Source: a virus
DNA: 64,000 nucleotides
Virus record (IMG/VR): IMGVR_UViG_3300025598_000021
Direction: 5' to 3' (one strand)
Shown here: positions 51,256-61,255 of the stretch, piece after piece
Layout of the letters: every line of letters starts with the position of its first letter
Numbering within the stretch: position 1 is the stretch's first letter
Notes under the pieces: generated by a model
The model's database searches: none
Told to the model about the DNA's origin: nothing
Seen by the model: only the letters and a program-made list of their open reading frames with translations
Made by a program: the position numbers and the translations under genes

Positions 51256-51597
51256 ATGGCACAGAACCAAAGACTAAGTTCACTCGGTGACGCGTTAAGT
51301 ACTGCGCAGTCTAACGGTCAGCTGTTAGCCGCTAATGGCGCCGGTGGATACTACTGGACCACACCTGGTGGTATACTAACTGTTAATACTACTCCACCCG
51401 CATCTGCTAACAGCGCGGACATGTGGCTGAACCCTTCTGATGGTATACTGTACACTTATATAAATACTGGATCGAGCAGTCAATGGATAGAATATGGTCC
51501 TAATGAGTTATATACTCCGACATACGTAGTCGATGGTGGCGCTGCTAATACGATCTATCAATTAACGCCATTGGTTGGCGGAGGAGCTGCTGGATGA
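51256..51597 (+). CDS. Small fibre adaptor protein
   Basis: MAQNQRL N-terminus; DMWLNPSDGILYTY...QWIE; late promoter at 51232-51239. Confidence 0.65.
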   Translation: MAQNQRLSSLGDALSTAQSNGQLLAANGAGGYYWTTPGGILTVNTTPPASANSADMWLNPSDGILYTYINTGSSSQWIEYGPNELYTPTYVVDGGAANTIYQLTPLVGGGAAG

Positions 51598-52621: not shown

Positions 52622-53929
52622 ATGAGTACTTTGTCTGTAACAACTATCACTTCAGCAAACGGAACGACCGATCTCACTCTATCTTCTGGCAATACGACCG
52701 CCGGACAGATGGTGGTGTTGTCGAACGGTGCCGGCGTGGTGCTAAAGAGCAACGCGACGTCTACTTCTCTTGGCGTATATTCTAACGGCACCATGACTCT
52801 GACTGGCAATCTAGTAGCCAGTAACATATCGTTTGGCACCAACACGAGCTTCGCGGCCAACGTAGGTATCGGCACGGCAAATCCAGCCGTCACGCTAGAC
52901 ATGAGTGCGAAGACAGACTCGATTCTTCTACCCATCGGTAACACTGCTAACAGAAACATTCTCACGTCCAACGGACAGCTCAGGTTCAACAACGACGTCG
53001 CTAGAAAAGAGTACTGCACTGCGGGTTTTTGGATAAACGAGCAGAACGGATATACGCAGGTCACCGGTAAGACTAGAGTAGCATTTCAGTACACTGGAGC
53101 TCTACAGTCTTGGACTATACCTTCTAACGTCAACTACATCTTCGTGAAGTTGTGGGGTGCAGGCGGTGGTGGTGGCTCATACGGCAGTTGGAGACAGGGT
53201 GCGACCGGCGGCGGTGGTGGATATTCTGAGGGAATAGTTCCGGTGGTCCCCGGTCAGACCCTGTACATTCGCGTCGGTCAGAACGGCTATGCCAGATGGT
53301 CTTCAAATAAAGCGTATCCGGACGGCGGCGCTTCTTCTACTTCTACAGGCGATAACCAGTACTGCGGAGCCGGTGGCGGCTCTACGAGCATCGCGACGCC
53401 AAACGTCAACGCAAATAACTGGTGTATGTACGCCGGAGGCGGTGGCGGTGGCGGATCCGTAAACGGTTGGGGTAGAAATCCTGGTGGCGCCGGCGGCGGT
53501 CTAACAGGTGAAGACGGTTTTACTGAGTTAACGTCCTATACACCATACGCGTACGTAGGCAAGGCAGGAACGCAGTCTGCAGGTGGAGCAGGTGGTACCG
53601 GCGGTACCGCAGTAGGTGGGGCTGGTTCAGCGAACCAAGGTGGTACTACTCAGAACGGTAACAGCTACGGTGGCGGTGGTGGCGGCGGCTACTACGGCGG
53701 TGGGTCTGGATCTTACGCAGGCTCTTCAATGGCTGGCGGCGGAGGTGGATCAGGCTACATTCATCCATCGATCATCAGAGGCGTGACTCTTACTGGCATT
53801 AGAGAATATCCAGCTATGCCTAACGACCCAGACGCTATAGCGTATTCACTTAACGGCATTAATAGGATAGGCGTCGGTGGCGACGAGGGTTCTAACGGCG
53901 GCTATGGTCTAGCCATAGTATACTACTGA
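52622..53929 (+). CDS. Glycine-rich adhesin (polyglycine-sandwich type)
   Basis: VKLWGAGGGGG and many GGGGG runs separated by variable loops. Confidence 0.75.
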   Translation: MSTLSVTTITSANGTTDLTLSSGNTTAGQMVVLSNGAGVVLKSNATSTSLGVYSNGTMTLTGNLVASNISFGTNTSFAANVGIGTANPAVTLDMSAKTDSILLPIGNTANRNILTSNGQLRFNNDVARKEYCTAGFWINEQNGYTQVTGKTRVAFQYTGALQSWTIPSNVNYIFVKLWGAGGGGGSYGSWRQGATGGGGGYSEGIVPVVPGQTLYIRVGQNGYARWSSNKAYPDGGASSTSTGDNQYCGAGGGSTSIATPNVNANNWCMYAGGGGGGGSVNGWGRNPGGAGGGLTGEDGFTELTSYTPYAYVGKAGTQSAGGAGGTGGTAVGGAGSANQGGTTQNGNSYGGGGGGGYYGGGSGSYAGSSMAGGGGGSGYIHPSIIRGVTLTGIREYPAMPNDPDAIAYSLNGINRIGVGGDEGSNGGYGLAIVYY

Positions 53930-54273: not shown

Positions 54274-54936
54274 ATGTCTACGTTACAAGTCGCCAATATA
54301 TATTTTGAATCTTCTGGCAACAACAGGATCCAGTATCTTGGATCTAATAACTATTCTTTTTATGCCGGCGGCTTGCCTACACTCACTGTCAACACGTCCA
54401 CAGTACTGTTTACAGCTTCTATGTCGTTTACGAGCATCGGTGCAAACACAGCCAGCGCTAATACGCTTACAGCAAACTCGTTTACCGTCGTGAATAACTA
54501 CTTTGTAGCTAACGGCTGGGTAGGACTAGGCAACTCGACTCCGATAGATAAGTTCTACGTGCAGGGTAACATCGTCGCATCCGGCGACGTGACTACCTCA
54601 TACTCAGACGAGAGACTAAAGACTCTGCTCTATAAGATCGAGCGTCCTCTAGAAAAGATAAATAGTCTAAACGGCTGGGCCTATAGCCCATCTGCTCTAT
54701 CTCTGAAGTTAAATCCTGAACAGAAGAATGAAATAAAACTAGGTGTTATAGCGCAAGAAGTCGAGAGCGTACTGCCTGAGATAGTTTCTATCGCTCCTTT
54801 TGATAGAAACGCTAATGGAGAGTCTGTCTCTGGCGATAAATACCTTACGGTTAGTTATGATAGAATTGTACCTGTTTTAATTGAGGCTATAAAAGAACTG
54901 ACTTCTAGAATAGAGAAATTAGAATCTAGGAGGTAG
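54274..54936 (+). CDS. Short fibre with C-terminal intramolecular chaperone (peptidase S74-like)
   Basis: YSDERLK...GVIAQEVESVLPEIV...YDRIVPVLIEAIKEL. Confidence 0.85.
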   Translation: MSTLQVANIYFESSGNNRIQYLGSNNYSFYAGGLPTLTVNTSTVLFTASMSFTSIGANTASANTLTANSFTVVNNYFVANGWVGLGNSTPIDKFYVQGNIVASGDVTTSYSDERLKTLLYKIERPLEKINSLNGWAYSPSALSLKLNPEQKNEIKLGVIAQEVESVLPEIVSIAPFDRNANGESVSGDKYLTVSYDRIVPVLIEAIKELTSRIEKLESRR

Positions 54937-54938
54937 CT

Positions 54939-55112
54939 ATGGCGTTTAAGATTGGTTCGACTACTATAGTAAATAATAGTATTCAGATACCATGGTCTCA
55001 GATCGATCTTTCGTCGTATGGAAACTATATCAATTCAGTATATTTTACCGGTTCTGATAAGATCATCAACGTTTATAACTCCGGTTCAGTCTTATACATC
55101 ATAAGGACTTAA
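54939..55112 (+). CDS. Short peptide paralog A (57 aa; not in ORF track)
   Basis: AGGAGG SD; MAFKIGSTTIVNNSIQIPWSQIDLSSYGNYINSVYFTGSDKIINVYNSGSVLYIIRT. Confidence 0.8.
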   Translation: MAFKIGSTTIVNNSIQIPWSQIDLSSYGNYINSVYFTGSDKIINVYNSGSVLYIIRT

Positions 55113-55116
55113 TAGA

Positions 55117-55293
55117 ATGGCTTTTAAGATCGGAAGCACTGTCGTTATCGATAATTCCGGAAACGTTCCATGGTCTACTGTAGGATCCATTCCTTCTGGT
55201 ACCGTGATATCTATATCGGCGCCGAGCAGCGGCGGTGGCGTATATAGAGTAAGTGGGTGGGACGGTTACAATCTGACTTTCTATAGATCATAG
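55117..55293 (+). CDS. Short peptide paralog B (58 aa; not in ORF track)
   Basis: AAGGA SD; MAFKIGSTVVIDNSGNVPWSTVGSIPSGTVISISAPSSGGGVYRVSGWDGYNLTFYRS. Confidence 0.8.
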   Translation: MAFKIGSTVVIDNSGNVPWSTVGSIPSGTVISISAPSSGGGVYRVSGWDGYNLTFYRS

Positions 55294-55304
55294 GTCAACA
55301 CACG

Positions 55305-55562
55305 ATGGCGTTAAAAGTAAACACGACTACGGTCTTCAACAACAGCGCAAAGATTCCATACACGCAGGTGAGTGGTTTTCCACAGCTTGTGACTTCTGCT
55401 AGTTCTACTCCTACAGGTGATGGCACTAATCCGATCGGTGGCACAGGCACCTACTGCTACGCTTTCAGCTTCAGTGGTGGATCGCTAGTCGCTACATTTG
55501 ATACTAACTGTGCATGCGTTTGTGCGTGCTGCTGTTGTTGCGCCTGCTGTTGTAACTGTTAG
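55305..55562 (+). CDS. Cys-rich peptide paralog C, putative radical SAM substrate
   Basis: Related N-terminus MALKVNTTTVFNNSAKIPYTQV; C-terminus NCACVCACCCCCACCCNC. Confidence 0.8.
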   Translation: MALKVNTTTVFNNSAKIPYTQVSGFPQLVTSASSTPTGDGTNPIGGTGTYCYAFSFSGGSLVATFDTNCACVCACCCCCACCCNC

Positions 55563-55570
55563 TTAGAGTT

Positions 55571-56458
55571 ATGGCAACTAATTTAAAGATATTCACATAT
55601 GGTTCGAACAATCCATCAATAGCGTCGATTACAGAATCATCTAATGGAAATATTGAAATAAGAATTAAGGCGGTCGATCAGCTATCTTATGACATGCCTA
55701 ATGAAGACGCGTGCAACTATATTTGGAACTTCAATCCAAAAGAATTATTAAAGTCTAAAGACCAATGTCCAAATAAAGCAGGAGTCTTTGATCTAGTAGG
55801 TTTTTCGACCAAAGACATAGTGAAGGGGACACCGATAGTTACTCCTCCGCTAGTCAATAGACTTAAGACGTACTATCAGTCTAACTTTAAAAGACTAGAG
55901 AGTAATGACTTCTTTGGCTCAATAGATATAAATCCTAAACACACAAATATATCTCTGCGCATGCAGGCCAACTGCAAGATAATTTCAAACCTATCATATG
56001 ATACCTTTGATTATGTAAAAGACAATGGTTATACGCAAGCACTTGGCACGTCTATATTAATTACGCCGCCGTCGAATAAGCACCAAGGAAACACCACGCC
56101 AGTGCCACAAGACGTGTATCCTTTTACTCTTTCATACAGTGGTCCTACGCAGATACCACTAAGTGGCGGAATATTTAATATATCATTCGACTTTGATAAT
56201 CATGGAATAAAAGGTAAAGGTGGTAAGAACAAGAATCCAGGTAAAAAACCAGGTCAAGAGTATCATGACTTGTGCGACTACAACGTAGTATATGCCAACG
56301 CTGATAAAGGTAAGATCGATCCTTCTTGTAAGATAATAAATAAAAAAGGAAGTATAAGCTTTGATCCTACTGGGCTGTCAGTAGGAGACACAGTTACGGT
56401 AGATATTGGAGTGCACTGGTTTCTACTATCAATAAGAATACAGTTTCAAATAATATAA
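55571..56458 (+). CDS. Hypothetical protein of the radical SAM cassette (beta-rich C-terminus)
   Basis: 295 aa ORF between the Cys-rich peptide and the radical SAM gene; ISFDPTGLSVGDTVTVDIG. Confidence 0.75.
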   Translation: MATNLKIFTYGSNNPSIASITESSNGNIEIRIKAVDQLSYDMPNEDACNYIWNFNPKELLKSKDQCPNKAGVFDLVGFSTKDIVKGTPIVTPPLVNRLKTYYQSNFKRLESNDFFGSIDINPKHTNISLRMQANCKIISNLSYDTFDYVKDNGYTQALGTSILITPPSNKHQGNTTPVPQDVYPFTLSYSGPTQIPLSGGIFNISFDFDNHGIKGKGGKNKNPGKKPGQEYHDLCDYNVVYANADKGKIDPSCKIINKKGSISFDPTGLSVGDTVTVDIGVHWFLLSIRIQFQII

Positions 56459-56475
56459 ATGATAAGGATTTTATT

Positions 56476-57792
56476 ATGTTTGAATTGATTATGATAGATC
56501 AAGAAAATAAAAGACGTTCTATATTTTATGATCCACATAAGTCTACCGTCTCTGATAAAGATGGAAAAGATATACTAATAACTGATGTTAAACCTCATTC
56601 TTGCTTTAAGAAAGCAATAGGTATATCGCCGACAAATCCTGGCTCAAAGGTATCCAAATTAAGTAAAATTCGTATCCAGTTAGGACTCGGGTGTAACTAT
56701 TCATGCTCGTACTGTCTTCAGAAAGATCAAATTAAAGATTCAACAAAGACAAGTCTTAGAGACGCTGAAATATTCATGAAGAATCTAGACAAGTGGGTAG
56801 AAGGAGCTCCAGCAGAGATTGAGTTCTGGGGAGGTGAGCCTCTTCTTTATTGGAATAAGATTAAGTTTCTTCTTGAAAAATTAACTGAAAGATTTCCGGA
56901 AGTTTCATATCTTATTATCACCAACGGAAGCTTGATAGATGACGATTTTATTGAGACCGTAGAGAAATATAACATTAGAGTCGCTATATCTCATGATGGT
57001 CCTGGTCAGTATAACCGAGGACCAGATCCATTAGACAATCCTATACAGTTTGAGATGATTAAGAAGTTCTTCGATCGTAGAAAAAACAACATGAGTTTTA
57101 ACTCAGTGATCACCCCTTCTAATATGAATCTCGATAAGATAGAACAGTTCTTTAAATCAAAGTTTGGTCAAGAAGCGAGAATAAGTTTTGAAGGTGTAGT
57201 GATAAACTACGACGACGGTGAGTCAAATACTTTTACTACTGAGCAGTATAATGAACTTTCTAAGAACGTAGCGATGTCTTGTATGAGACCATTTGAGAAT
57301 CTACCTAATACGTTCCAGATAAAGATTCGCGAATTCATGAAGACTCTACAGAATAAGTTAAGTTCTGATTCTGTATTTCAGAAGTGCGGAATGGACAGAG
57401 AAGACTATATAGCCGTAGATCTATTAGGTAACGTCATGACGTGTCAGAATACTGGTTCTACTGGAAAGCATAGAATTGGACACGTCTATTCGCTAGATAA
57501 AGTTAAACTTAATACGTCGTGGCATTGGTCGCAGAGAGAAGAATGCTCCCACTGTCCCGTGCTGCAGCTATGTGCAGGATCGTGCATGTATGTTGAGGGT
57601 CCAAGCTGGTATCACTCGTGCAACAATGAATACTACTACAACATGGGAATACTCGCAGGAGCGATGTATCATATGACTGGAATGATCTTAGAAGAAGTAA
57701 AAGGAGAGACCTGGAGGCCGGATCCAGCTGACTATGGCGTTACTATTAAAGATCATAGTCAAAATATAGTTGATGGACTTTTAGAAGTATGA
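56476..57792 (+). CDS. Radical SAM enzyme with SPASM domain
   Basis: CNYSCSYC (CxxxCxxC), FWGGEPLL, ISHDGP; KCG...GNVMTC...CSHCPVLQLCAGSC (Cx2Cx5Cx3C)...SC. Confidence 0.93.
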   Translation: MFELIMIDQENKRRSIFYDPHKSTVSDKDGKDILITDVKPHSCFKKAIGISPTNPGSKVSKLSKIRIQLGLGCNYSCSYCLQKDQIKDSTKTSLRDAEIFMKNLDKWVEGAPAEIEFWGGEPLLYWNKIKFLLEKLTERFPEVSYLIITNGSLIDDDFIETVEKYNIRVAISHDGPGQYNRGPDPLDNPIQFEMIKKFFDRRKNNMSFNSVITPSNMNLDKIEQFFKSKFGQEARISFEGVVINYDDGESNTFTTEQYNELSKNVAMSCMRPFENLPNTFQIKIREFMKTLQNKLSSDSVFQKCGMDREDYIAVDLLGNVMTCQNTGSTGKHRIGHVYSLDKVKLNTSWHWSQREECSHCPVLQLCAGSCMYVEGPSWYHSCNNEYYYNMGILAGAMYHMTGMILEEVKGETWRPDPADYGVTIKDHSQNIVDGLLEV

Positions 57793-58535
57793 GACAGCTA
57801 AAGATAGATGAGACCGTTTGTCTTGATGATTTAGTAGATGTAGAAGAACTTAAGTCTCTTCATGATAGATTATGTGTGTCTATAGCCAATGCGTACGACG
57901 ACGGAAGAGTTTCAGTACAGTCTCTTGGAAATTTGCTGTCTGAGAGATATCCATATCCTAGCATACTAGATAAATTTATTCAATTTGGAAAAGCTAAAGT
58001 AAATATTCCTAAAGAAATAGACAATAATGACAAGCTATTAAGATACATAATGTTCACTGAAAAGACTACCGGAATAGCTAGTGTAATAAGTATATTTAAT
58101 TATAAAATCAGCGATGATCATAAAATTAGTAAAAACTATAAAGAATTTTATTCTATAATAGAGTGGATAAAGAAACAGGATCTATACTCAGAACTTATAC
58201 AGTGTAATCTAGTATTAAGTCAGAGCGGTGAACCAACACCTATTCACGATCATCCTAGACCAAAGAGTTTTCCAAATAGCTTTGAAGAAATAGACGAAGA
58301 GACAAGATTTTCTTTATGGATAAGACTTAACACTGATAGAAAATTATTCATGTACGATCATAAAACAAAAACTAAACACTATATAAAAGACAAAGATGGC
58401 GGTGGACTGGTGTTCTATTGGGATTCTAGCAGCTTCCATGGTGCCGATCCGTCATGGAACGCCACGTACGCGTTCGTGATAACGGGTATTCCATCAAAAA
58501 AACTGTTTGATTTTATTGATCAAAAACTCAAATAA
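57789..58535 (+). CDS. Putative cupin/2OG-Fe(II)-type oxygenase
   Basis: PTPIHDH...WDSSSFHG metal-ligand pattern in a beta-barrel-like context; ATGA-coupled to the radical SAM gene. Confidence 0.55.
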   Translation: MRQLKIDETVCLDDLVDVEELKSLHDRLCVSIANAYDDGRVSVQSLGNLLSERYPYPSILDKFIQFGKAKVNIPKEIDNNDKLLRYIMFTEKTTGIASVISIFNYKISDDHKISKNYKEFYSIIEWIKKQDLYSELIQCNLVLSQSGEPTPIHDHPRPKSFPNSFEEIDEETRFSLWIRLNTDRKLFMYDHKTKTKHYIKDKDGGGLVFYWDSSSFHGADPSWNATYAFVITGIPSKKLFDFIDQKLK

Positions 58536-58563
58536 ATAAATTAAAAAAAGATAGGATAAACAG

Positions 58564-59247
58564 ATGTCAACATTAACGGTAGGTAACATCACAGGAACGC
58601 CTATAATTAGTTCTGGACCTATAACAGGTACCGGTGATTTTACTACTACCGGCAATATAACTGCCAATAATCTAACAGCTAATGGTACTTTTACCGGTAA
58701 TAATCTTACAGGTAATAGCTTTTCTGGTAATAATTTTTACGGCATCAACGCATCGATTAATACTCTGCAGCCAAGATCTGGTAATCTTATAAGTGTTCCT
58801 GTTGGTTATAATATCTATTCTCCAGGTACTCCTGTGCAGACCGTTATAAACAGAGTCACGTCTTCATATAGTACATCGTCTTCAACTCTTAGTAATTTTT
58901 TTAATACTTCTATAACTATTAAAACGGTGGCTCCTATAATTATGGTTTTTCTACACTGTAAGCAGAGGTGTGACGTTAGTGGAACTTGGAATCTAGCGTA
59001 TTTTCAGATATACGAAAATCTTACAGCAACACCGGTAGCGTATTCTGGATATAACGGTGTTAACGCTTCTGGTTGGATTCATGATTATACTACAGAAAAA
59101 CCGTTCTATGCTCCTGGAGCTATAGGAACAACATATACATTTGCGCTTAATGTCGGTTCGTATAGTGGAACACAGTATTTTAATTCTCCATCAAACTCAT
59201 CAGATGATGGTTATGCAATAATGAAATTAACAGAGATAGCGAGATAA
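58564..59247 (+). CDS. Short fibre protein
   Basis: MSTLTVGNI; PGTPVQTV...MKLTEIA domain similar to the C-terminus of 37774..41106. Confidence 0.7.
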   Translation: MSTLTVGNITGTPIISSGPITGTGDFTTTGNITANNLTANGTFTGNNLTGNSFSGNNFYGINASINTLQPRSGNLISVPVGYNIYSPGTPVQTVINRVTSSYSTSSSTLSNFFNTSITIKTVAPIIMVFLHCKQRCDVSGTWNLAYFQIYENLTATPVAYSGYNGVNASGWIHDYTTEKPFYAPGAIGTTYTFALNVGSYSGTQYFNSPSNSSDDGYAIMKLTEIAR

Positions 59248-59249
59248 AG

Positions 59250-59633
59250 ATGAAATACACTATAATAGAAGCTCTTTCTGTTTTATCTCCTGGTTCAGAA
59301 TGGAGCATAAGAGACACTGATTACTCTTCAATCCAATGGATGAGTCCAGGTTATCCACCTTATTTAGAATCTCTAGAATCTAAAGTATTAGAACTAAACA
59401 CTGCTGAGCCGATGAGACTGCTTAGGTTGGAACGAGACAGAAGATTGTCAGAAACAGACTGGATGGCCGTGTCTGACAGGATTATGACAGACGATCAAAA
59501 GACTTATAGGCAGGCTCTTAGAGACCTACCAGATAAGATAACAACTTCTCCAAAATTAAATGAAATTTTTGAGCTAGATGTGTCCAGCGTAGACTGGCCT
59601 GTTCTGGGAAATACTGCGACGGCGACTAATTAA
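59250..59633 (+). CDS. Phage tail fibre assembly chaperone
   Basis: LRLERDRRLSETDW...YRQALRDLP...WP. Confidence 0.8.
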   Translation: MKYTIIEALSVLSPGSEWSIRDTDYSSIQWMSPGYPPYLESLESKVLELNTAEPMRLLRLERDRRLSETDWMAVSDRIMTDDQKTYRQALRDLPDKITTSPKLNEIFELDVSSVDWPVLGNTATATN

Positions 59634-59680
59634 ACCCTAAAACGTATAAATAAGATTATACCAAAACCAGGAAAAAAGCA

Positions 59681-61255
59681 TTGGCAACGACTTATCAGAA
59701 AATCTCGGGTTTAACCACCGCTTCTGGCGCGGGTGCGAACGATAGATTCGTAATCCTAACCAATGCCACGTCTACGCCTCTCCTGCAGACGATATCCTAC
59801 CCTGTAGTTCTTACTACAATATCTGGCAGCTTCGTCAACACGACGTCTCCTATTATCTCCAATTCTATTACCGTAAATACTTACTTCGCGGCTAATACCT
59901 CAGGCACATACACGGTAAACGCCTACGCCAATAACCTGACGGTAAACACCGCAAACGTCAACGTCAAGCTACAGGTCGGCAACGCTGCCGTAGGATTCGC
60001 GTTCGGCGCCGCGGCTTTGGTTCAGGTAGACGGCAACCAGAATACGTATGTACAGACTATCCTACAGAACGCTAACTCCGGCACAAACGCTACTACCGAT
60101 CTAATACTCACGGCCGATACTGGCACAGACTCTATAAACTATCTAGACATCGGCATCAACAGTTCTACTTATTCTAATACGCAGTATACCATCGGCAGCC
60201 CACTAGACGGCTACATATACGCTAGTAACTCTAATCTAACGATAGGCACCGCCACGGCGAATGAGCTAGTATTTCACGCTAACGGTACCACGAGCTCAGA
60301 TAGAAAATTAACCGTAAACGCCACTTCAGTATACGTATCAAATAACGTAAGCTTTATATCAAATTCCGGAACGTTCTATGGAGCGGTGACTGTAGGAACG
60401 AACCTAACGGTCAATGGAAACTTCTCAGTAACTGGCAACGTAACGTTCGCCGGTAACACCACGTTTATTAACGCCACCGTCATAACCACTAACGACAAGA
60501 ACTTCATACTAGCAAACAATGCCGCCACTGCTCTAGCGGCTGACGGTGCAGGTATCATCATTGGATCTTATGCCAACCTCGTATATGACAACGTAACAAA
60601 CTCTTGGCAGTCCAACGTAGGTATCACGCCTCTCACTAATAACTTAAATCTCGGCAATACCAGTCTAGTATGGAATATATTCTCTAATAATATCACAGCT
60701 GCAAACGTTCTAGTCGGCACTACTTCGGGCTTCACTAGAGCTAACTCTTCAGCGGTCTCAGTAGGTAACTCTACGGTAAACACCACCATCACGTCTACGA
60801 CTGTCACAATAGCAGCAAACAATCTAGGTGGATTCTACGTCGGTAACACCGTCAGTAACTCGTACGTAAACGCTACTGGATTCTTTACCACCGGTAAGAT
60901 CGGCGTCTCTAACGCTGCTTCTTCTGACACGATCAGAGTCGAGGGAACGATCAGCGCTCTAGCGTCACTCGCGGTCAGCAACTCGTCCGGCGTCATTACT
61001 CTCGCTAATACGTCTGGTCTCTTTATAAATAATGCATCTGGTTCAATAAACGTTGGTAACTCAACGGTAAATACATTTTCAAATTCTACTTACTTATTCT
61101 CAGGTAACTCGACATTCTACGGATTTGTCAATTCAACTGCAGAAGCTATAGTGAGTCCTACCAGTAATACGATAATTACCGCAAACGGAATAACCACAAA
61201 CGGAATACCGTATCCTACTGTAGTAACAATGTTAACTTATAATCTAGCCTTCTAA
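59681..61255 (+). CDS. Tail fibre-like protein (524 aa)
   Basis: KISGLT N-terminus, N/T-rich repeats, ends VTMLTYNLAF; late promoter at 59645-59652; TTG start. Confidence 0.75.
   Translation: MATTYQKISGLTTASGAGANDRFVILTNATSTPLLQTISYPVVLTTISGSFVNTTSPIISNSITVNTYFAANTSGTYTVNAYANNLTVNTANVNVKLQVGNAAVGFAFGAAALVQVDGNQNTYVQTILQNANSGTNATTDLILTADTGTDSINYLDIGINSSTYSNTQYTIGSPLDGYIYASNSNLTIGTATANELVFHANGTTSSDRKLTVNATSVYVSNNVSFISNSGTFYGAVTVGTNLTVNGNFSVTGNVTFAGNTTFINATVITTNDKNFILANNAATALAADGAGIIIGSYANLVYDNVTNSWQSNVGITPLTNNLNLGNTSLVWNIFSNNITAANVLVGTTSGFTRANSSAVSVGNSTVNTTITSTTVTIAANNLGGFYVGNTVSNSYVNATGFFTTGKIGVSNAASSDTIRVEGTISALASLAVSNSSGVITLANTSGLFINNASGSINVGNSTVNTFSNSTYLFSGNSTFYGFVNSTAEAIVSPTSNTIITANGITTNGIPYPTVVTMLTYNLAF

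Follow-up and report, generated by a model that had tools for sequence, protein, structure and literature searches.

The subject of this analysis is a cassette of six genes at positions 54939-58535 of a 64,000-nucleotide stretch of viral DNA (IMG/VR virus record IMGVR_UViG_3300025598_000021; the whole stretch is called the window). The window derives from an uncultivated T4-like myovirus, whose hub, of the gp5 type, shares about 31% identity with those of cyanophages. All six genes are on the + strand, are closely tiled and are situated between fibre genes on both sides. They encode three mini-proteins (A, B and C), of which C ends in a run of alternating cysteines, a partner protein of 295 amino acids (aa), a radical S-adenosylmethionine (SAM) enzyme of the SPASM type and a protein predicted to have the fold of 2-oxoglutarate (2OG) oxygenases. 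We consider the cassette a candidate maturation module for a tail-fibre tip. The features are:

54274-54936, + strand: tail fibre, 220 aa, with C-terminal Peptidase_S74 (S74) intramolecular chaperone (PF13884, 1.1e-9; 40 tail-fibre PHROGs)
54939-55112, + strand: mini-protein A, 57 aa, open reading frame (ORF) with the shared N-terminal motif, no Cys tail; paralogue of B and C
55117-55293, + strand: mini-protein B, 58 aa, ORF with the shared N-terminal motif, no Cys tail; paralogue of A and C
55305-55562, + strand: mini-protein C, 85 aa, ORF, Cys-tailed (tail at 55509-55559), presumed substrate
55571-56458, + strand: conserved partner, 295 aa ("cluster 2"), of no known family, C-terminal 115 residues predicted as immunoglobulin (Ig)-like
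56476-57792, + strand: radical SAM/SPASM enzyme, 438 aa, presumed maturase (Pfam Radical_SAM and Fer4_12; phrog_1802)
57789-58535, + strand: protein of predicted 2OG-oxygenase-type fold, 248 aa (AlphaFold2 (AF2) model, Foldseek)
58564-59633, + strand: downstream fibre-like protein, 227 aa, and tail assembly chaperone, 127 aa (Phage_tail_APC, 4.7e-13, for 59250-59633)
51459-51466, + strand: nearest upstream copy of TATAAATA, the T4-type late-promoter consensus; next copy at 59645-59652

The initial annotation, made from the sequence alone, had described tightly packed genes for three short paralogous peptides and a radical SAM enzyme with a SPASM motif, flanked by fibre genes. All of this holds: the six ORFs are found at these coordinates, the S74 fibre and the Phage_tail_APC protein lie on either side, and the peptides and the enzyme are what they were taken for. 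A, B and C are 32-34% identical and have the N-terminus MA(F/L)K(I/V)..T....NS...P(W/Y) in common. Gene A starts 3 nt past the stop codon of the S74 fibre, with AGGAGG placed 6 nt 5' of its ATG. In C the N-terminal motif is followed by a short beta-like stretch, GGSLVATFDT, and then by the (Cys-X)n tail. This tail, NCACVCACCCCCACCCNC, is carried by C only; 12 of the last 17 residues of C are Cys, and its alternating-Cys repeat is the sole one in the window. An origin as microsatellite or assembly artefact was considered and rejected: the Cys codons are a mixture of TGT and TGC, separate contigs out of several freshwater metagenome runs carry the tail unchanged, and it is conserved at the protein level. 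The contigs compared from four runs display the cassette free of variants and indels, and the enzyme of the window is also present on a 161-kb contig.

The enzyme has the radical SAM motif CNYSCSYC at residues 73-80 (C73, C77, C80) and matches PF04055 with 4.6e-13 and 50.1 bits, the cut-off being 29.5. Among 28 homologues C73 and C77 are invariant and C80 is almost so, and the protein thus belongs to the radical SAM superfamily. Seven further cysteines (C304, C323, C357, C360, C366, C370 and C382) are invariant or nearly so in the same homologues and match those of the SPASM domains of anSME and CteB in the alignment, which places the enzyme in the SPASM subgroup, defined by the C-terminal motif C..G....C … CX2CX5CX3C … C for two auxiliary 4Fe-4S clusters; the Pfam SPASM model itself gave no report for it at E<=0.1. 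The PHROG match is phrog_1802 ('radical SAM domain-containing protein', 3.9e-59). Homologues are abundant, i.e., 2258 proteins at E<=1e-10. The nearest ones in isolated phages, gp030 of Achromobacter phage JWF and ORF045 of Ralstonia phage RSP15, are 36-37% identical, and both are located within tail-fibre clusters; at the nucleotide level a megablast of the region against isolated phages yielded no match. In the enzyme tree the window groups with the related loci L003, L004 and L006 at 100/95 support. L003 and L004 have the gene order of the window; L006 is devoid of a Cys-repeat neighbour.

No curated radical SAM family claims this enzyme. The best NCBIfam match is PapB (NF047865), which covers residues 62-373 with 95.6 bits against a cut-off of 340, followed by the SCIFF maturase (TIGR03974, 63.5 against 425), CcpM (TIGR04068, 61.8 against 500), QhpD (TIGR03906, 57 against 453) and anSME (TIGR03942, 55.7 against 349.45). 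The best-scoring families PapB, SCIFF maturase, CcpM and QhpD are Cys-directed peptide cross-linkers. By PDB profile the closest solved relatives are 8vpo (1e-20), anSME (3e-17) and CteB (4e-15).

Does the enzyme go together with the Cys tail beyond this one virus? With the single enzyme sequence as query no related loci were found, and an alignment was needed; a profile scan of viral contigs with the enzyme alignment gave at least 518 stretches, and 80 loci were fetched. The initial annotation had suggested to look for (CX)n-terminated ORFs upstream of homologous enzymes, and they are indeed there. In 63 viral loci the homologous enzyme was preceded by 2.5 kb or more of sequence, and in 53 of these a (CX)3C repeat is present in a + strand ORF ending no more than 4.5 kb upstream of the enzyme. 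The density of repeats is 3.33 per 10,000 aa compared with 0.15 in all other frames, a 22-fold difference. Under a looser definition 56 of 61 non-redundant enzymes are paired, and the five exceptions are scattered over the tree as singletons and form no clade. The reverse approach started from the repeat. Viral contigs were scanned for DNA encoding NCNCNCNC, and ORFs of at least 50 aa which end in the repeat and have enough downstream DNA were retained (31 non-redundant). All of them except one are followed, on their own strand and at a distance of up to 6 kb, by a gene of this enzyme family (30/31), compared with none of 27 matches in which NCNCNCNC is internal or located in a short frame. 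The adjacency of enzyme and Cys tail is far beyond chance, and it is met again in hundreds of unrelated phages. The window itself unites the three features of the module, a (Cys-X)n fibre-type C-terminus, a same-strand radical SAM/SPASM gene within a few kb and a location in a tail-fibre cluster.

From this linkage we consider it quite probable that the substrate of the enzyme is the Cys tail of a virion fibre protein. The alternative is that the tail forms a metal-thiolate or disulfide knot unaided and that the radical SAM enzyme and the oxygenase serve the fibre cluster in another way, modifying a different residue, a sugar or a small molecule. Runs of CxC do resemble metallothionein motifs, metal ions are common in fibre tips, e.g., in gp37 and gp12 of T4, and a paralogous radical SAM gene (L006/L088) is found among methyltransferase, aminotransferase, hydrolase and cupin genes with no Cys protein nearby. 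Nevertheless, the two-way linkage is hard to explain unless the enzyme needs the tail, and in several loci (L008, L010, L113, L115) the Cys ORF directly abuts the enzyme gene. Further, SPASM enzymes, to our knowledge, modify proteins or peptides. An unaided knot is thus unlikely.

The paralogues deserve a description of their own. A single viral contig (L005/L006) carries two radical SAM paralogues, one accompanied by a Cys-tailed mini-protein and the other without a Cys neighbour. The latter follows two proteins of about 350 aa, both unknown, and one of 98 aa, and a gp34-like fibre comes after it. The surroundings of the radical SAM gene in L088 comprise methyltransferase, aminotransferase, hydrolase, PF13759 and cupin genes.

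What are the Cys-tailed proteins of other viruses? In L049 the Cys-ended protein has a Phage_T7_tail N-domain and collagen repeats, in L043 it has collagen repeats, and those in L042, L080 and L058 match tail-fibre PHROGs; overall the Cys-ended fibres are of T7, collagen-like, T4, P2 and lambda types. In isolated phages, gp028 of JWF is annotated as a fibre and contains …NCNCDCNCNCSC directly followed by a Hint domain, and ORF048 of RSP15, annotated as side tail fibre, has the end …NTNCQCGN. In a Bradyrhizobium P2-like prophage the module is placed between fibre and sheath genes. The module occurs in all tailed morphotypes, always in fibre clusters. Judged by their domains, the Cys-tailed substrates are fibre proteins. 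The proposal of the initial annotation that the substrate is part of the virion has thereby gained support, in that the same tails end undoubted tail fibres.

Not all repeats are located directly ahead of a stop codon. In L001, L010, L014, L023, L052, L063, L067 and L073 an internal repeat runs straight into a self-cleaving Hint/Vint domain (…C|F.(A)G(T)), and in L053 (…CACACW|SDGRLK) and L203 (…CACFW|SDDTLK) it precedes S74. Because a self-cleaving domain directly follows every internal repeat, the repeat constitutes the mature C-terminus in each case; stop codon, Hint and S74 are three routes to a fibre which ends in a Cys repeat. The case of JWF gp028 (L001, 4835-6286), from a culturable siphovirus, is most graphic. 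The Cys repeat joins the catalytic Cys of the Hint domain (…NCNCSC|FPAGTMVL), and self-cleavage would leave the repeat as the C-terminus.

These fibres bear on the question whether the cassette is a true pathway for a ribosomally synthesised and post-translationally modified peptide (RiPP), in which A-C would be leader-plus-core precursors of a released antimicrobial or signalling peptide and the location among fibre genes would be incidental. Short paralogous peptides with a conserved leader-like N-terminus and variable C-termini have this appearance, and the best hidden Markov model (HMM) match of the enzyme is a ranthipeptide maturase. However, the same tails end fibres of 300-726 aa which lack the N-terminal motif, A and B possess the 'leader' but no Cys core, and sequence searches of the cassette disclosed no protease, transporter or immunity gene. 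Processing by Hint and S74 points to structural C-termini, and across tailed morphotypes the module is invariably located in fibre clusters. A released peptide is therefore very improbable.

The N-terminal motif requires a different explanation. An HMM of the motif matched 48 ORFs in related loci. BLASTP matches of B are the N-termini of Cys-tailed proteins (25 loci), and homologues of C in L014, L009, L032 and others terminate in NC.C.C tails. Mini-proteins occur as lone Cys-tailed genes or as triplets; triplets are present in the window and in L008, L009, L010, L014, L016 and L039, with a tail on one to three members. In at least 13 other loci the Cys-tailed or first mini-gene begins within a few bases of the stop codon of an S74-type fibre, as it does in the window. 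A role of the motif as an enzyme-recognition leader was rejected: many Cys-tailed fibres lack it, and A and B have it but carry no Cys. For the same reasons we read it most likely as a docking motif onto a fibre. The docking partner probably is the S74-processed fibre encoded immediately upstream. The tip may be one heterotrimer of three paralogous mini-chains with a tail on one chain only, or A, B and C may be three alternative tips. A complex prediction of A, B and C did not discriminate, the control having scored equally high.

Which reaction is carried out? The residues between the cysteines are informative. Of 247 such residues 119 are N, 47 A and 38 D, and 44 of the 57 repeats have Asn ahead of their first Cys. 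Known thioether enzymes of the Cys-Asn/Asp kind, NxxcB, PapB and QhpD, use Asn and Asp as acceptors. An (N-C)n run also consists of overlapping N-x-x-C motifs, the spacing used by the streptococcal Cys-Asn thioether enzyme NxxcB. At the position of anSME Cys261, the fourth ligand of auxiliary cluster I, the window enzyme has Asp and the family Asp or Glu; CteB is also without this Cys. According to the structure papers on CteB and anSME an open site on auxiliary cluster I reportedly is where thioether synthases bind the substrate Cys. The missing Cys261 equivalent, a pattern as in CteB, hence lends weak support to thioether synthase chemistry, by analogy. Taken together, three points make thioether cross-links the likeliest product: the identity of the nearest families, the cysteine pattern shared with CteB and the presence of Asn/Asp acceptors in most tails. 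To this tentative assignment we give slightly less than even odds.

The same substrate could undergo a different conversion. Cys might be oxidised to formylglycine as by anSME, or to another Cys-derived product, and the reactive groups could then condense with neighbouring Asn/Lys side chains or bind to the host surface. This would suit the second-best solved relative, anSME, which acts on whole proteins, as well as the annotation of the JWF homologue as anSME. The cysteines are separated by a wide variety of residues (N, A, D, K, R, Q, V), which argues that only Cys matters, and (Cys-Lys)n variants are present in L053 and L056. But with 55.7 bits the anSME model stays far below its cut-off of 349, the family has no ligand equivalent to Cys261, and in the substrate sequences, when read directly, there is no sulfatase motif of the CxPxR type. 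We consider such chemistry unlikely, if slightly less so than an unaided metal or disulfide knot.

L053 (116-910), L056 (1006-1713) and L047 encode fibre-type proteins in which about 25 Cys-Lys repeats are followed by an S74 domain. They belong to a larger conserved gene set, in which the radical SAM gene and a second gene of enzyme-like type, also Cys-rich, are accompanied by four oxygenase-like genes and by genes for FAD-type proteins of 550-640 aa.

Conservation of the 295-aa partner had been named in the initial annotation as a point to check. Clustering of all + strand ORFs assigned it to a family, cluster 2, with 50 non-redundant members in 82 loci, ORF047 of RSP15 included. BLASTP of the 295-aa and 248-aa proteins against their neighbours in JWF and RSP15 detected no clear similarity, and cluster 2 emerged only by transitive clustering; a Pfam match was found neither for the protein nor for the cluster. 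The AF2 model has a predicted local distance difference test score (pLDDT) of 63.6 overall and above 90 over much of the C-terminal domain, and its N-terminal half is poorly modelled. The C-terminal 115 residues are predicted to form an Ig-like beta-sandwich of the intimin/macroglobulin type (Z 9.3, root-mean-square deviation 2.7, 87 aligned). Structure searches (Foldseek, VIA) returned generic Ig-like domains only, and in BFVD the best matches are phage proteins of equal size, all of them uncharacterised. The 295-aa protein could be a conserved helper, either a chaperone which presents the substrate or a structural partner.

The 248-aa protein is a different matter. The initial annotation had called it a translationally coupled, cupin-like protein with an HDH…H motif. 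The coupling is real in so far as its start overlaps the stop of the enzyme gene as ATGA, and H153-D-H155 and H217 are in place; the predicted fold is that of a 2OG oxygenase, the ligands are atypical, and the protein is an accessory. Its AF2 model (pLDDT 81.1) is a double-stranded beta-helix of the 2OG-oxygenase type. Foldseek returned 190 matches at E<=0.001, among them the prolyl hydroxylases P4H and PHD2 at about 5e-6, with template-modelling (TM) scores of just 0.32-0.40. A word-seeded homologue search retrieved only the protein itself. Exhaustive phmmer searching disclosed 21 relatives with the common motif TPIH.D … HG.DP … R.DG.F. The window protein has His where these relatives have Asp (H153-D-H155…H217) and Val230 where 90% of them have Arg; it thus possesses neither the H-x-D/E…H triad nor the Arg/Lys for binding of 2OG. 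The nearest relative, P0122, is encoded directly downstream of a radical SAM gene with an upstream Cys-tailed protein, and the ESM Atlas offers, as a lead, clusters of viral Asp/Asn beta-hydroxylases.

In most other loci PF13759 (2OG-FeII_Oxy_5) oxygenases are present in place of the 248-aa protein. These putative 2OG-Fe(II) oxygenases constitute cluster 3 (31 of 33 members match PF13759), often with two copies per locus, and L003 has a PF13759 gene at the very same place. No PF13759-like ORF is present in the window. Membership of the 248-aa protein in PF13759 or cluster 3 was rejected: hhalign, hmmsearch and BLASTP were negative, and neither a Pfam nor a cluster-3 profile matched. It therefore is a lineage-specific accessory with a predicted oxygenase fold and atypical ligands and not a core part of the module.

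All things considered, the best explanation, for which we estimate a probability of about 0.6, is that the cassette encodes the phage's own maturation module for the tip of a tail fibre. Mini-proteins A, B and C would dock via their N-terminal motif onto a fibre, probably the S74-processed one encoded upstream. The enzyme would be made late alongside the fibre genes and would act by radical chemistry on or beside the cysteines of the tail. The product would be a set of sulfur-to-carbon thioethers like those of CteB, PapB and QhpD, and the cross-linked tail would constitute a compact knot, locked by covalent bonds, at the far end of the fibre. The Ig-like 295-aa protein may assist as presenter or structural partner, and the 248-aa protein would be a variable accessory in place of the PF13759 oxygenases, which in other loci may hydroxylate Asn/Asp between the cysteines. 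The role, as we infer it, is to stabilise or to arm the receptor-binding tip. A more tentative generalisation, to which we give somewhat less than even odds, holds that in tailed phages of all morphotypes (T4-, P2-, lambda-, T7- and ViI-like) a dedicated radical SAM enzyme, often together with 2OG oxygenases and an Ig-like helper, turns an (Asn/Asp/Ala-Cys)n tail into a polycyclic cross-linked distal knot of the receptor-binding fibre, here maybe as a three-chain heterotrimer tip.

Several observations weigh against this proposal. The initial annotation had named as contrary evidence homologues without Cys-rich neighbours, or a grouping with sulfatase-maturation or cofactor enzymes. The latter did not materialise, as the scores are far beneath the cut-offs of those families; a few homologues without a Cys neighbour do exist, i.e., L006/L088 (55% identity to the window enzyme), L071 and L078. 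Because the 55% identical L006/L088 paralogue is part of a different gene set without a Cys protein, the enzyme family is not strictly tied to Cys tails and can take other substrates. The tail of the window is an Ala/Val/Cys-rich variant with just two Asn, and chemistry directed at Asn/Asp fits less well here than in most relatives. The assignment of the chemistry rests on analogy, and the reaction could be a new one, since the scores for all curated radical SAM families fall far short of the cut-offs. The N-terminal extension of the enzyme amounts to only about 65 aa, and a PqqD-like domain, indicative of a RiPP recognition element (RRE), was not found by sequence searches, which are insensitive for RREs. 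The 248-aa protein, lacking the 2OG-binding Arg, may not be a 2OG enzyme. Finally, oxygenases of the 2OG type need O2 and radical SAM clusters are O2-labile, a difficulty for joint action on one substrate.

The setting of the cassette is that of a late gene region. TATAAATA is present in the window in 16 copies, 3.56 being expected, and 14 of the 16 are on the + strand; further copies are situated, e.g., at 61024 and 61695. Within the cassette there is none, and the nearest ones are at 51459 and 59645. Therefore, the cassette likely is transcribed late, jointly with the fibre genes, as far as promoter positions can tell. GC content is 0.31-0.42 over 55.5-59.3 kb, compared with 0.41-0.59 upstream and 0.44-0.48 downstream. 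The initial annotation had noted that the enzyme genes are more AT-rich than their flanks; this is correct in part, and the low-GC stretch also takes in the next gene, that of the 227-aa fibre-like protein. The low-GC block fits a mosaic insertion which includes this gene, and its extent (55500-59300) suggests that the cassette enzymes and the fibre-like gene were acquired together. Another member of the fibre cluster, a 435-aa glycine-rich protein (52622-53929, + strand), has an ALK/LTK glycine-rich domain (PF12810, 8.6e-20) in addition to Gly_rich_2. Such a domain is unusual for a phage fibre region.

How does the module compare with known systems? In PapB/PapA (freyrasin), too, a radical SAM/SPASM enzyme acts on several close Cys in a short repeat beside acidic or amide residues. 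In contrast, the phage module has as its substrate not a leader-core peptide but a fibre-type protein, or a long fibre's end, among phage structural genes, the repeat has a period of 2 (C-X) instead of C-X3-D, and no RRE was found. QhpD installs several Cys-to-Asp/Glu thioethers in the small protein QhpC, which remains in a larger assembly as one of its structural components. In functional terms this is the nearest analogue of the module, in that the substrate is kept in an assembly and not exported as an antibiotic; QhpC differs as a subunit of a periplasmic enzyme, which has no period-2 repeat and is not viral. In the T4 proteins gp37 (His-Fe) and gp12 (His-Zn) a periodic ligand residue is located at the distal end of a trimeric fibre. 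Such metal-stapled tips are a structural analogy only; they use His and have neither a dedicated enzyme nor a radical SAM partner. CteB has an N-terminal RRE of about 100 aa, unlike the short extension of the window enzyme without a detectable RRE, and SCIFF is a 45-aa clostridial peptide. Alike in CteB/CteA (SCIFF; PDB 5WGG) are the seven-Cys SPASM region without the extra auxiliary-cluster-I Cys and the Cys-rich C-terminus of the substrate. The enzyme anSME (PDB 4K36) is similar as a SPASM enzyme which modifies a Cys of a full-length protein, and dissimilar in its Cys261 ligand and in the sulfatase motif of its substrates.

A description of the module was not found in the literature, the search having been mostly outside subscription journals. 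Cassettes of radical SAM and 2OG-oxygenase genes in host-recognition regions of phages have been reported with no function given (PMC7029224), and a cyanophage paper interprets such a maturase as an antibiotic synthesis gene (PMC12801897). The contributions of the window are the mini-chain triplet with its docking motif, the Ig-like cluster 2 family and the oxygenase-fold protein with its atypical ligands, together with the 30/31 result of the reverse approach and the recognition that a repeat can become C-terminal by three routes.

The maturation of virion proteins is generally regarded as a matter of folding and proteolysis and, occasionally, of glycosylation. If the proposal is true, the module would represent a new class of virion modification, in which a radical enzyme of the phage rewrites the chemistry of the host-recognition tip, and its product would be the first enzymatically cross-linked virion adhesin. 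It would account for the clustering of 'auxiliary' radical SAM and 2OG-oxygenase genes in those regions of marine and freshwater phage genomes which serve host recognition. It would also bring in SPASM enzymes by the thousands, as yet uncharacterised, with large and probably trimeric proteins as substrates. On the practical side, attempts to engineer receptor-binding proteins or to express them in a foreign host could fail if the maturase is missing. JWF would be a ready experimental system for the module.

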